Assembly: GCA_965204035.1 (NCBI GenBank)
Contig: OZ241964.1
Location: 1,231,933-1,295,932 of the forward strand
Reading direction: 5' to 3'
Source: Thermodesulfobacteriota bacterium
GTDB taxonomy: Bacteria; Desulfobacterota_D; UBA1144; Nemesobacterales; Nemesobacteraceae
Length of the DNA: 64,000 nt
Shown: positions 31,484-53,032 of the stretch, piece by piece
Layout of the letters: every line of letters begins with the position of its first letter
How positions within the stretch are numbered: the first letter of the stretch is position 1
Translations under genes and position numbers: made by a program
Notes under the pieces: model-generated
Seen by the model: the letters and a program-made list of their open reading frames with translations, nothing else
Databases searched by the model: none
Told to the model about the DNA's origin: nothing

Positions 31484-31837
31484 TTATTTTATAAGCTCTA
31501 TCTTGTCTTCAAGATTCGGCACAAGACACAGAAACTCAAAAGGCTCGTCGCCATCGACTTCATACCAGTGGGGCACCCCGGCAGGAATAAAGACTACGTC
31601 ATCCTTCTCGACGTTATATACATCATCTCCGATTCCAATACGTGCCTTGCCACCAAGCACATACTGCTCGTGCTCAACGGCGTTGGTATGAGCGGGGATA
31701 TCGCCTCCAGGCTGCATAACAAACTTTCTCATCGCGAAGTTCGGACCTTCCTCCGGACTGATAAGGACCTGCCTTGAAGTACCCTGCCCTGCTCCGATAA
31801 TCGTGCTTTCGACTTCTTTAACCTTCTTTACATACAT
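31484..31837 (-). CDS. Cupin-domain protein, paralog 1
   Basis: 117 aa with G(X)5HXH...E / G...P...H cupin motifs (PGGDIPAHTNAVEHEQYVL, VVFIPAGVPHWY). Confidence 0.7.
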   Translation of the reverse strand: MYVKKVKEVESTIIGAGQGTSRQVLISPEEGPNFAMRKFVMQPGGDIPAHTNAVEHEQYVLGGKARIGIGDDVYNVEKDDVVFIPAGVPHWYEVDGDEPFEFLCLVPNLEDKIELIK

Positions 31838-31957
31838 AATATTTCTATTATAGCACAGAAAAGACGGATTGTTCCATAGACACTTAGGGGGGTTATATGC
31901 AGTCCCAGCAGCCCTTAACGAGCGGGCATCGGTCTTTCCTGTCTTTTAACGGAGCGA

Positions 31958-32311
31958 CTACTCTGCGAAAACCATCTCGGTGTCTTTATTCGGCAGAACC
32001 GACAGAAGCTCAAAAGGTTCCTCTCCGTAAGCTTCATACCAGTGGGGCTCTCCGGCGGGGATAAAAACCACGTCGCCCTTTGCCACTTCATAAACCTGGT
32101 CCCCGATTCCGACCCTGGCCATGCCGGCAAGAACATACTGCTCATGCTCGGCGCCGCTTGTATGAGCGGGAATGCCGCCCCCGGGTTCAATGACAAGCTT
32201 TCTCATAGAGAAATTAGGGCCCTCCTCGGGACCTATCAGCATCTGTCTTGAAACGCCGTCTCCCGACTCCAGGACCTCGCTTTCTATATCGTCAATTCTT
32301 TTTACATGCAT
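31958..32311 (-). CDS. Cupin-domain protein, paralog 2 (tandem duplicate, ~60% aa identity to 31484..31837)
   Basis: 117 aa with the same motif layout (PGGGIPAHTSGAEHEQYVL, VVFIPAGEPHWY). Confidence 0.7.
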   Translation of the reverse strand: MHVKRIDDIESEVLESGDGVSRQMLIGPEEGPNFSMRKLVIEPGGGIPAHTSGAEHEQYVLAGMARVGIGDQVYEVAKGDVVFIPAGEPHWYEAYGEEPFELLSVLPNKDTEMVFAE

Positions 32312-49401: not shown

Positions 49402-50244
49402 TTATATGACCTTCGCGTCATCTCTCAAAAGCTTAACGAGTTCCCTTGCGGACTCGGCAATCTCGTCTCCCTTGACCGTAGTCTCGTCGCTTCCCTTTAT
49501 GATCCTCAGTTTTCTCTCCACTTCGGGAACCTCAAGACTCACTGTTTTTATCTTCGCCCCTGATTTGCCCACGGCATCCCTGCTGATGCCGAGAGAACCG
49601 AAATCCACATCGTCTAGGGAAACTGTTTTCATCGGTTTTCTCTTCGCTTTCATTATGTTGGGAACGGACGCGTAGCGGGGTTCGTTCATAGCGTCGGGAC
49701 AGGTTATAAGGGCCGGGAGAGAAACCTCGACGGAAACGCTTCCGCCGTCGATCTCTTTCTGGCAGACAAGCTTTTTCTCGTCAGGCTTTACGTCAATCAC
49801 CTTGCTTACAAGCGCAAGGTGCGCAATTCCAAGTTCCTCGGCTATCTGTATACCCATCTGCACGGATTCCTCGTCGATGATCTTCATCCCCGTGAAAATA
49901 AGATCCACCCCCTCGATATTTCCAAGTTCCGACGCGACAAGCTTCGAGAGAACAAGGGAATCCACGGTCTCCCCGAGAGCCTCATCCGAGACATGCACCG
50001 CGGAATCCGCGCCCATTGCAAGCCCTTGGAGCAACGCCTGTGAAGCGCGTTGCGGGCCCGCCGTGATCAGAACAACTTCGCCCCCGTATGCTTCCTTGGT
50101 CCTGATGGCTTCCTCGACGGCAAATTCATCATAAGGATTCATGATCCATTTCATGCCTTCTGTGTCTATGGAATCGCCGGAGGAACCGACCTTTATCCTT
50201 GCTTCGGTGTCCTGCGTCTGTGTTATAAAAACCACTATCTTCAC
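49402..50244 (-). CDS. etfB: Electron transfer flavoprotein beta subunit
   Basis: MKIVVFITQTQDTEARIKV...; ETF beta signature (VDLIFTGMKIIDEESVQMG). Immediately upstream of etfA. Confidence 0.85.
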   Translation of the reverse strand: MKIVVFITQTQDTEARIKVGSSGDSIDTEGMKWIMNPYDEFAVEEAIRTKEAYGGEVVLITAGPQRASQALLQGLAMGADSAVHVSDEALGETVDSLVLSKLVASELGNIEGVDLIFTGMKIIDEESVQMGIQIAEELGIAHLALVSKVIDVKPDEKKLVCQKEIDGGSVSVEVSLPALITCPDAMNEPRYASVPNIMKAKRKPMKTVSLDDVDFGSLGISRDAVGKSGAKIKTVSLEVPEVERKLRIIKGSDETTVKGDEIAESARELVKLLRDDAKVI

Positions 50245-50683
50245 CTGATACTACCTCCATGCTGGACTGATTTAATAGAGATGAAAATCTAAGGAAAAAG
50301 CAGCGGAAAAGCTGACTCCTTAGCTAGGCGTATGATTATAAATACTAGGGAGTTGCTGTCAAGAACAGAAAACCCTCTGTAGGATAGTCACCTCCCGGAC
50401 AACTTGGGCATCGTGTTGCCGAATATGTTTCGGACCGCGCTCAGCCGTCTCCCTCCATTTAATTGGAGTATCTCAAGATCGAGTCGCTCGGTCAAGACCA
50501 AGCAAAAGCTAAGCGTTATATTAAGGGCACCTCTAAGAATTGGTTTGCAACTCGAGATTATGAACCGTGGTCTGGTCTTTTCTCTCCATTTGGGTTGCTT
50601 TTGCCTTTCAAACCGAAATCCGGTTGTCCCATGTTCCTGCATCCGGTACAGCTTTATCGCATCTACACTCGCTGCCCCGTAAT

Positions 50684-50716
50684 TTGACAAGGGGGGGGGG
50701 GGTAGTCAGTTAGAAT
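50684..50716 (+). promoter_or_regulatory. Candidate promoter with TTGACA (-35) and TAGAAT (-10) separated by a 21-nt spacer that contains a G12 homopolymer
   Basis: Read directly: TTGACA at 50684-50689, G x12 at 50691-50702, TAGAAT at 50711-50716. RBS AGAGAGG precedes the ATG at 50760. Confidence 0.45.
50691..50702. repeat. Poly-G homopolymeric tract (12 G)
   Basis: Counted directly; the only long homopolymer in the window. Confidence 0.95.
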
Positions 50717-50759
50717 AACCAGTTAGTATCAAAAACATTATGACTAGAGAGGTTTTACT

Positions 50760-52190
50760 ATGAGGACGATTCTGTCTTTGTTCGTAGCATTGCTTTTTGT
50801 TGCCGGTTGCGGGGGGTCCGATAACACAGAAACACCTTCCCCTATGTGGCAAGAAGGAGTGTTTGCTCCCAGCGACGACTTCCATCAAGTCTGCGCTGAT
50901 CCAAGTAAGGCCTATGACCAGGAAACCGCCGTCCAGGGAACATACGTGGATGAAAACAACTGGTTGCGATCGTTCACTAACGAAACCTATCTTTGGTATG
51001 ATGAAGTTGTGGACACGGACCCGGCATGCTGCAGTACGCCTGAATATTTCGAAATGATGAAGACCTTTGAGACGACTTCTTCAGGCACCCCTAAAGACCA
51101 GTTTCATTTTTCAGTAAATACCAAAGAATGGGAAGAATCACAAAGGGGTATAACGTTCGGATACGGCCTTAATCTTGCAATGACCTCAGACGGAAGAGTT
51201 TTTATAATTTATGTAGAACCCAACTCACCGGCGGACAACGCGGGGTTGAGGCGCGGTATGCGTATTCTTGAAATTGACGGTGTCCCGATTGAGCAGGTGT
51301 CCGGCTCAGCCTCGTCTAAACCTGAAAGGCGTGAGTTTACTGTTTTGAGGCTTGGAGAATCACAGCCATTCTCCGTAACTATGACGTCCAAAGAGATAAT
51401 TACAAGTCCTGTTCTGGTGGTGGACATTCTAGTTGGTAGCAATTCTGGTAGTCGGATTGGCTACATGCTTTTTAATGATCATATTGCTCCTGCAGAACCA
51501 GATTTGATATCTGCTGTAGAGCATTTCGATTCTCAAGATATTGATGATTTGGTGCTTGATCTTCGCTATAATACTGGCGGTCTCGTTTATATTGCAAGTG
51601 AGCTTGCGTTTATGATTGCCGGACCACGCGCTACTGAGAATAAACTCTTTCTAGAAACTATCTATAACGTCAAGCACCCTTCAGAACCGTCCCCGTTTCA
51701 CAGTACCAGTTCAACCGGCCTTCCTTTGCCGAGTCTTAATCTGGAGCGAGTATTCGTTTTAACCACATCTAATACCTGTTCAGCAAGCGAAGCTATAATT
51801 AATGGGTTGCGGGGTATTGATGTAGAAGTTGTTTTGATCGGCGACACTACCTGTGGTAAGCCTTACGGCTTTGTTCCGGAGGACAACTGCGGCACTACTT
51901 ACTTCACAATTCAGTTCAGGGCCGTGAACGATAAGGGGTTTGGTAGTTATGCGGACGGTTTCCAGCCAACCTGCCAAGCAATAGATGACATAAGATATCC
52001 GCTTGGTGACCGCAGAGAGACTAGTTTGAGGACAGCTCTTGATTATTTAGATTCGGACCAGTGCCCTGCTTCTCAACAGACAACCAAGCCAGAGGAGGGT
52101 GAGGCGGCGAGAGTTTCTTCAGATCAGTTGGAGCCTCCTGATATTATTGAAATATGGCCTCCCGCAATACCGAGTATGATTCCGGATTAA
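50760..52190 (+). CDS. S41-family serine peptidase (C-terminal processing/tail-specific protease-like) lipoprotein with a PDZ domain
   Basis: Lipoprotein signal with VAGC lipobox. PDZ (EPNSPADNAGLRRGMRILEIDGVPI). S41 motifs DLRYNTGG, catalytic Ser in TCSASEA, catalytic Lys in DTTCGKPYG. Lower GC than the flanking genes. Confidence 0.75.
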   Translation: MRTILSLFVALLFVAGCGGSDNTETPSPMWQEGVFAPSDDFHQVCADPSKAYDQETAVQGTYVDENNWLRSFTNETYLWYDEVVDTDPACCSTPEYFEMMKTFETTSSGTPKDQFHFSVNTKEWEESQRGITFGYGLNLAMTSDGRVFIIYVEPNSPADNAGLRRGMRILEIDGVPIEQVSGSASSKPERREFTVLRLGESQPFSVTMTSKEIITSPVLVVDILVGSNSGSRIGYMLFNDHIAPAEPDLISAVEHFDSQDIDDLVLDLRYNTGGLVYIASELAFMIAGPRATENKLFLETIYNVKHPSEPSPFHSTSSTGLPLPSLNLERVFVLTTSNTCSASEAIINGLRGIDVEVVLIGDTTCGKPYGFVPEDNCGTTYFTIQFRAVNDKGFGSYADGFQPTCQAIDDIRYPLGDRRETSLRTALDYLDSDQCPASQQTTKPEEGEAARVSSDQLEPPDIIEIWPPAIPSMIPD

Positions 52191-52579
52191 GCTAGTAGTG
52201 GCGGCAGCCGGTCACCTTTCAGACTCTAAAAAACTGCTTATTTCAGGCAATGATTAAGAGAAATTACCGGCTGTTGTCGAGAATATAACGGTCTGCTTCT
52301 TTTAAGCTTGCAAACGGTTTTATCGAAACAATCCTACAAGTTTGTCAAACGCATGTAGATGGAATCATGTGTGCAAAACGCAGAGATGCTGGTGAAAACC
52401 TGCCTCCCATCAGGTTCCCAGTTGCCTTCAGGTTACTCTGCTGAGCAAAAACTCTCAGTAGGGTAATTCACACCAATCAGCAGATCGTTTGACCCCGTGA
52501 TGTTGCCACCATATTATGGTATAGACTTATATGAAAATGAGTCGGCATGCTTTTCGATCTGAGAAAGGAGACCCCGAAG

Positions 52580-53032
52580 ATGAAAATCGCTGTTGGAAGT
52601 GATGAAAAAAACGCCCTCACCGACGAGGTAATAGAGGAGCTTCGCAAAAGAGACATGGAAGTCGAGCTCTTCGGGCCTCTCGCGGACAAAAATGAGGAAT
52701 GGACCGAAGTCGCCGAGCAGGTGGCCGAAAGGGTTTCTCAAAAAGAGTGCGATCAGGGGATCCTGTTCTGCTCGACGGGAACGGGGGTAAGCATTGCCGC
52801 GAACAAGGTCCCGGGAATAAGGGCGGCCTTATGCACGGACTCAAAGACGGCCGCGGGAGCACGCATGTGGAACGACGCGAACATACTCGCCATGAGTTTG
52901 CGTCTTGTATCCCCCGACGTAGCCAAGGAAATCCTTGACGCGTGGTTCCAGAGCGAACCTGATCCTTCTGAGAGGGAAAACATAGAGAAAGTGGCAGGAA
53001 TCGAATCAAAGTACCGCAACCGGGCGGACTGA
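52580..53032 (+). CDS. rpiB: Ribose-5-phosphate isomerase B
   Basis: MKIAVGSDEKN..., GILFCSTGTGVSIAANK is the RpiB/LacAB active-site region. Start assigned to the internal ATG at 52580. Confidence 0.85.
   Translation: MKIAVGSDEKNALTDEVIEELRKRDMEVELFGPLADKNEEWTEVAEQVAERVSQKECDQGILFCSTGTGVSIAANKVPGIRAALCTDSKTAAGARMWNDANILAMSLRLVSPDVAKEILDAWFQSEPDPSERENIEKVAGIESKYRNRAD

Follow-up and report, generated by a model that had tools for sequence, protein, structure and literature searches.

S41 lipoprotein gene and its upstream poly-G tract

The window analyzed here is a stretch of 64,000 nucleotides of contig OZ241964.1, which belongs to an assembly of a Thermodesulfobacteriota bacterium (GCA_965204035.1). 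Between etfB (49402-50244, minus strand) and rpiB (plus strand, starting at 52547 or 52580) it contains only one credible gene, an open reading frame (ORF) on the plus strand at 50760-52190. The encoded protein of 476 aa is a lipoprotein with a PDZ domain and an S41 (C-terminal-processing-type) serine peptidase domain. A run of twelve G residues (G12) is located directly upstream. This G12 is a genuine hypermutable simple sequence repeat (SSR), which is polymorphic between strains and lies at the putative promoter of this exported S41/PDZ lipoprotein gene. The promoter assignment itself is inferred, as are a dependence of transcription on the length of the tract and an adaptive value of the locus, if it has one.

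The tract is framed by two promoter-like hexamers on the plus strand. The -35 candidate TTGACA (50684-50689), found by direct reading and by the matrix scan described below, is followed by an A at 50690 and by G12 (50691-50702), the candidate slipped-strand switch. Then follow TAGTCAGT (50703-50710) and the -10 candidate TAGAAT (50711-50716), resulting in a spacer of 21 nt. The whole stretch from TTGACA to TAGAAT lies 44-76 nt 5' of the start of the S41 gene. A ribosome-binding site (RBS), GAGAGG (50747-50752), ends 7 nt before the ATG at 50760. An earlier sequence-only reading of the window had described these elements. Direct reading confirmed its coordinates and its spacer length; its text had skipped the letters CAGT, the count being right. 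It had also stated that no other long homopolymer occurs in the window, and this holds: nothing else exceeds 8 nt, the next G/C runs being C7 and G6. In dinucleotide-preserving shuffles an exact G12 is expected 0.01 times. SSR phase variation requires a homopolymer of about 8 nt or more, a length which G12 exceeds.

The intergenic region between the divergent etfB and S41 genes (50245-50683) is native, with 91-100% identity to the syntenic loci L008, L009 and L011 introduced below. On the minus strand it carries the etfB promoter TTGACA-16-TATAAT (50362..50335). This promoter agrees with the consensus in 12/12 positions, which indicates that canonical sigma-70 hexamers are used by this organism. 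A search of 50200-52650 against Rfam was negative at E<=1, and a riboswitch or a small RNA (sRNA) as the reason for the long intergenic regions is therefore unsupported. Translational phase variation through the tract was considered as well and rejected: 50760 is the first start codon after an in-frame stop, which argues against an N-terminal extension of the ORF, and no listed ORF spans G12.

The classification of the gene product, as proposed in the sequence-only reading, is well supported. Peptidase_S41 (PF03572) was detected with 48.9 bits (cut-off 24), and the PDZ models PF17820/PF00595 score above their cut-offs as well. The catalytic motifs S341-A-S-E (SASE) and T-C-G-K367 (TCGK) are invariant in 30 homologs. 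Together with the PDZ domain, these Ser/Lys motifs place the protein in the S41-with-PDZ family. Its N-terminus, MRTILSLFVALLFVAG/C17, contains the lipobox LFVAG/C17, with the codon of Cys17 at 50808-50810. C17 and G18 are likewise invariant across the 30 homologs, as expected for a bacterial lipoprotein. From the lipobox alone, the protein may be surface-exposed. Among the PDB entries, the putative S41 protease 3k50 is closest (E 1.9e-24); CtpB was also matched. The best NCBIfam model is S41_Gfo1087 (NF058627, GFO_1087 family) with 179.6 bits, far below the equivalog cut-off of 455.

Downstream of the gene, a terminator-like hairpin with a T-run is located at 52269-52303 (plus strand), followed by a separate promoter-like site of rpiB at 52489-52517. 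Because of these two elements the S41 gene seems to be monocistronic.

The tract and the gene body in related strains

For comparison, loci (L numbers below) were collected by look-ups of close homologs and of the exact EtfB protein of the window, the latter yielding four new strains. Exact-protein look-ups with S41 and EtfA of the window returned no record, while a 100%-identical protein is listed on a contig of 2.0 Mb. The gene order etfA-etfB / S41 / rpiB-asd was found in eight further assemblies (L008, L009, L010, L011 (= L099), L100, L101, L102 and L103). Their etfB gene and the proximal intergenic DNA are 98-100% identical to the window, and the assemblies are therefore regarded as strains of one species. 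A single scan of JGI metagenomes, with the N-terminal 115 aa as query, returned distant relatives only and no syntenic locus. The nearest named relatives are metagenome-assembled genomes (MAGs) labelled Candidatus Dadabacteria or Thermodesulfobacteriota. Several of these MAGs are at chromosome level and resemble those that accompany sponge genome projects (PMC12648040). The organism is a Candidatus Dadabacteria bacterium and is probably sponge-associated.

The alignment of the promoter regions revealed two architectures. Type A has the form TTGACA-A-Gn-TAGT(C/T)AGT-TAnnnT. It is present in the window and in L101 (both G12, with TAGAAT as -10-like hexamer), in L009/L010 (G11, TAAAAT) and in L102 (G11, TAGAGT). 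In type B, the tract is directly followed by a 12-nt insertion, TAGTTAATTAGT, and 2 nt are deleted further along. The insertion is preceded by TTGAC+G11 in L008, by TTGAC+G5AG5 in L100 and by TTGAT+G6AG4 in L011/L099/L103. Altogether, seven distinct syntenic promoter alleles show five tract states (G12, G11, TTGAC+G11, G6AG4 and G5AG5), and the flanks around the variable tract are 91-100% identical across the syntenic strains. Strain-to-strain variation of the tract length, as required for SSR phase variation by spacer length, is thus observed. The comparison across strains and metagenome-assembled relatives, which the sequence-only reading had proposed, shows that tract length and purity differ among conspecific strains.

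TTGACA is intact in all five type-A alleles and is replaced by TTGACG or TTGATG in type B. In the aligned -10-like hexamers (TAGAAT, TAAAAT, TAGAGT and TAATAT), T1, A2 and T6 are kept and positions 3-5 vary. The type-B tract is interrupted in 2/3 of the distinct alleles, by two independent G>A changes. A pure tract together with an intact TTGACA in type A, and interruptions together with an altered hexamer in type B, are expected if purity is kept only where the tract matters. Downstream of the tract, the window contains a direct repeat, CAGTTAGAAT / CAGTTAGTAT, with a spacing of 13 nt (50707-50729, plus strand). This repeat overlaps the -10 candidate, and a regulator might bind there. Type-B alleles have TAGTTAAT twice instead. 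The start codon lies at the same position in the alleles, as ATG in the window, L008, L011 and L102 and as GTG in L009/L010 and L101.

A sequencing or assembly artefact (two-colour poly-G or a chimeric join), a concern already raised in the sequence-only reading, is effectively refuted as an origin of G12. It is true that homopolymer lengths are error-prone and that one short contig (Logan contig L004) begins or breaks inside the tract. However, the tract with both flanks is present at the same site in at least nine independent assemblies from several studies and two pipelines, and the flanks are collinear with the syntenic strains. The lengths are also reproducible: L009 equals L010 (G11; ENA versus Logan), L011 equals L103, and L002, L003 and L012 agree with each other (G9). 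The window and L101, which come from different data sets, both have G12. In any single assembly an error of +/-1 in length is possible.

A tract of this kind was also found outside the syntenic slot. A non-syntenic homolog (L002/L003/L012, 81% identical), located between rnc and a phd/parE pair, has the promoter TTGACA-AAATTA-G9-TAGAGT in an intergenic region of 125 bp. Little of its remaining upstream sequence can be aligned to the window. Related Dadabacteria genomes contain S41 paralogs at no fewer than six separate loci. No G tract is present upstream of the closest paralogs L001 (88%), L005/L013 (84%), L006 (77%) and L104 (64%). The same applies to the distant family members checked (Gammaproteobacteria, Acidobacteriota and other Dadabacteria paralogs), which have no upstream G/C tract. 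In the approximately 764 kb of fetched loci, G/C runs of at least 8 nt are rare, and runs of at least 9 nt occur, outside unrelated taxa, at only three distinct sites. All three of these Dadabacteria sites are located at the 5' ends of genes for exported proteins.

One of the G/C runs is a C10 run in L008 (11344-11353) and L011 (11333-11342), which follows ATG AAA .. TTT A and lies 460-470 bp downstream of tRNA-Pro(ggg). The window has a different sequence there. At C10 the reading frame stops at once, while one extra C would open an ORF with an RRRSF twin-arginine signal peptide, for which no other start codon is present. The site resembles a further contingency gene of this species, one in which a G/C tract would act on translation, and is considered as a candidate.

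The gene body behind the tract has a different history than the promoter. Up to about 51000, the window is 91-100% identical to L009 (a short contig, compared from about 50300), and at 50701-50900 its identity to L008 and L011, both of type B, falls to 83-88%. Between 51100 and 52200 the identity to the syntenic strains is only 57-80%, and from 52200 it is again 86-100%, mostly >90%. Paralog L001, which is located between SIR2 and pdxA on another contig, shares 92-97% identity with the window over exactly this divergent interval. At the informative sites, the window follows the syntenic allele L101 to about 51034, L001 from about 51050 to about 52207 and the syntenic sequence again from 52210. 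The breakpoints (about 51035-51049 and 52206-52210) are clean, and L101 combines the hexamers and G12 of the window with another gene body. The window allele thus originated from a replacement of approximately 1.17 kb. This gene-conversion-like tract (51040-52208, plus strand) comprises the PDZ domain, the catalytic domain and ~18 nt directly beyond the stop codon. The S41 promoter is native, and so are the initial 280 bp of the gene.

In strains that share 98-100% identity in the flanks, the slot holds at least three classes of alleles (476, 479-482 and 565 aa; 50-68% aa identity). The third class, found in L102 behind a type-A promoter, is 565 aa long and 50% identical. This gene (L102:780-2477, minus strand) has seven PVEPME repeats in tandem immediately behind the lipobox, and these are a further source of length variation based on repeats. 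Recombination has exchanged the body of the S41 gene, and the family belongs to the flexible genome. The gene is a diversifying, recombination-shuffled locus, which fits a contingency locus.

The sequence-only reading had described the whole 2.2-kb segment as horizontally acquired. For 51040-52208 this description is right in spirit. It does not apply to the segment as a whole, since the gene slot, the promoter and both intergenic flanks are present in the eight syntenic assemblies with 90-100% identity. The GC content of the interval between etfB and rpiB (0.43-0.49; window 0.51, flanks 0.50-0.58) is modestly reduced, and similar dips occur elsewhere in the window. A genomic island, which should be absent or unrelated in relatives and deviant in composition, was thus rejected for 50290-52550.

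Further observations concern the surroundings of the paralogs. About 100 nt 3' of the stop codon are homologous between S41 paralogs at different loci (window 52191-52300, L001:6087-6200 and L005), which indicates that the duplicated or mobile S41 unit includes the 3' flank. This shared flank contains GCTAGTAGTGGCGGC, followed in L001 by the hairpin-like CCGGCAAT..ATTGCTGG. In OZ220700.1 (L013:3108-5555) a 2.4-kb module, consisting of a gene for a 160-aa lipoprotein and an S41 gene, lies between two tandem cupin genes. The counterpart in the window is an 'empty site' (31838-31957) between adjacent cupin genes on the minus strand (31484-31837 and 31958-32311). Directly upstream of two tract-less S41 paralogs, full-length sub-threshold matches to RF02221 (sRNA-Xcc1) were detected (L104:3871-3959 and L006:3307-3395; 36.7 and 30.9 bits, gathering threshold 53; E 7e-5 and 2e-3). 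These stretches are conserved between both loci and may be a structured leader; the window has nothing comparable.

Promoter spacing and alternative explanations

According to the explanation we favor, slipped-strand mispairing in replication would alter the number of G residues. This number would set the distance and the helical phase between TTGACA (50684-89) and the TAnnnT -10 hexamer (50711-16), and transcription would differ stochastically from cell to cell, as phase or 'volume' variation. G12, with its spacer of 21 nt, is predicted to represent a low or OFF state and G8-G9 the optimum. The locus can plausibly be regarded as a contingency locus with an on/off expression switch. Whether tract length would modulate transcription mainly through the TTGACA-to-(-10) geometry is evenly balanced in our judgement.

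The spacing was analyzed with a sigma-70 position weight matrix (PWM) whose hexamer frequencies are E. coli values, so that its results are only indicative. TTGACA/TAGAAT is the best plus-strand sigma-70 pair in the 515-bp intergenic region despite the penalty for a 21-nt spacer, and the only strong one upstream of the gene. With simulated tract lengths, type A scores best at G8 and the L002 paralog, with TAGAGT as -10, at G11. Support for a function in promoter spacing also comes from the position of G12 at -69 to -58 relative to the start codon, where a core promoter is expected, from TTGACA and a tract being retained in the diverged promoter of the paralog, and from the restriction of the -10 variation to positions 3-5. 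Other promoters were considered as well. One candidate further downstream reads TTAATA-18-AATATT in type B and CATTAT in type A; it was rejected, as the transcription start site (TSS) would then fall inside the RBS. A by-eye search for sigma-54 or extracytoplasmic function (ECF)-type promoters gave no convincing match.

Several findings weigh against promoter spacing as the mechanism. The observed spacers are 20-21 nt in pure type A, 15 nt in the paralog and 32 nt in type B, where the 12-nt insertion places TTGAC 32 nt from the conserved -10-like hexamer. None of the seven distinct alleles at the locus, a small sample, has a spacing of 16-18 nt. Because of the missing 16-18 nt spacer and the 32 nt in type B, the simple spacer model fits only some of the alleles. 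By the PWM, type B is without an acceptable promoter at any tract length, yet its ORFs are intact. The step from G12 to the optimal spacing needs 3-4 successive deletions instead of one. The G9 length of the paralog is constant in three assemblies, which possibly come from one study, and the conservation of the tract at the S41 locus weighs little among such closely related strains. The phase switch by promoter spacing, the central claim of the sequence-only reading, is thus upheld in part: the tract is real, lies at the best hexamer pair and is polymorphic in length, while an ON spacing was not found, type B does not fit and several steps are needed. Similarly, the claim that a loss of 3-4 G restores optimal spacing agrees with the PWM optimum at G8, but these deletions would have to be sequential and no such allele was seen.

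The same missing ON spacing would be explained if the tract is a labile, functionally neutral relic of an ancestral promoter, with expression being constitutive or driven by other signals. This is rather unlikely in our estimation. It would account for observed lengths which never give optimal spacing, for intact type-B genes behind interrupted tracts with TTGACG/TTGATG, and for the missing G tract in distant family members and in the closest paralogs L001, L005 and L013, whose proteins are 84-88% identical. A neutral relic is, however, difficult to reconcile with the great rarity of G/C runs of at least 9 nt in the lineage and with the location of all three sites 5' of exported-protein genes. 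Moreover, two paralogous loci have kept a pure G9-G12 next to TTGACA, while the rest of their upstream sequence diverged. An alternative promoter that leaves a workable 5' untranslated region (UTR) was not found; the other PWM candidates put the TSS inside the RBS. A role in transcription by another mechanism at the promoter or in the 5' UTR, without -35/-10 spacing, appears unlikely, too. TTGAC(A) and the G run could together form an element that acts from upstream or depends on an activator, so that its helical phase to the -10 matters, or the tract could lie in the 5' UTR and act on structure or processing of the mRNA. TTGAC and the -10 are 20-21 nt apart in type A and 32 nt apart in type B. 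This difference of 11-12 nt corresponds to about one helical turn, which would be compatible with activator phasing as in opc or fim. In addition, no allele has a canonical -35 located 16-18 nt upstream of the TAnnnT hexamer (PWM), and the direct repeat 3' of the tract could bind a regulator. A mechanism other than spacing has a precedent in opc (PMC7864442), and 5'-UTR-dependent SSR phase variation is described in another report (PMC12721329). These arguments are purely geometric, and the interrupted type-B tracts speak against a continued need for a variable tract there.

The tract might also serve recombination in the first place, by a G-quadruplex (G4)-like or other non-B structure which promotes allele replacement, comparable to the G4 of N. 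gonorrhoeae pilE. The locus is indeed a hot spot with three allele classes, the conversion tract of 1.17 kb starts about 340 bp downstream of G12, and potential donor paralogs exist at other loci. We nevertheless consider this as the main role to be very improbable. A single G12 would form at best a weak two-tetrad structure, the breakpoints differ between the allele classes, and L001 and L005 share the exchanged sequence yet have no tract. Co-occurrence is the sole evidence. In a wider version, the S41 family of sponge Dadabacteria would form a contingency system, in which poly-G switching of paralogs is combined with gene conversion over at least six loci reshuffling the gene body, and the G tract perhaps initiates recombination like the pilE G4. 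This version is speculative and seems quite unlikely.

Comparison with known contingency systems

To our knowledge, nearly all SSR contingency loci described come from pathogens restricted to their hosts (such as Neisseria, Haemophilus, Campylobacter, Helicobacter and Treponema), and we know of no cultured representative of the phylum considered here. In the literature searched, no paper combined Dadabacteria and phase variation. A promoter poly-G tract on a recombination-shuffled exported protease would carry bet-hedging into a new setting, a streamlined genome with a contig of ~2 Mb. It would also mark an individual protein of the surface or periplasm as a target of diversifying selection in a sponge or marine symbiont. 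If the wider contingency system exists, an animal symbiont that is uncultured and non-pathogenic would possess an antigenic-variation-like system, and strong discrimination by hosts or phages at its surface would be expected.

The closest parallels are porA of N. meningitidis and tp0126 of T. pallidum. As in the window, a G run of about 9-12 nt lies between -35-like and -10-like hexamers of a gene for an envelope protein, and the tract length sets the spacer and differs between strains (PMC7864442). The spacer mechanism of porA and the -35 overlap in opc are summarised in the same source. In T. pallidum tprL most promoters have G9, and the reporter signal was higher for G8 than for G10 (PMC7864442), which shows that the majority tract length can be non-permissive. 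For porA and tp0126 expression was measured, and their common lengths bracket the 17-nt optimum. In contrast, the alleles of the S41 locus are 3-4 nt too long, the paralog is 2 nt too short, and one of the promoter types is not explained by the model at all.

In Neisseria opc a poly-C tract overlaps the -35, and in B. pertussis fim it is located between an activator site and the -10. Like these two and the tprE/G/J/L genes, the S41 gene has a promoter-proximal G/C homopolymer; in the known systems it modulates transcription without a simple 17-nt rule. The likeness extends to paralogous envelope-protein families which also undergo recombination. The S41 locus differs from these systems in having no known regulator such as BvgA or CRP and in belonging to an uncultured, non-pathogenic marine or sponge-associated lineage.

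With CtpA, CtpB, Prc, 3k50 and NF058627 the S41 lipoprotein shares the PDZ and S41 domain with the Ser/Lys motifs. It differs from these by its lipoprotein anchor, its richness in cysteine and its many paralogs. We know of no S41 peptidase which is phase-variable. The pilE/pilS system of N. gonorrhoeae resembles the locus in having a G-rich element upstream of a gene whose body is replaced from paralogous copies. The G4 motif upstream of pilE is needed for pilin gene conversion. In contrast, the S41 gene has a single homopolymer instead of a canonical G4 with four runs, and no silent cassettes are known in this genome. If the explanation by promoter spacing is true, the mechanism is one already known from the porA, tp0126 and tpr types, while the lineage and the class of gene would be new.

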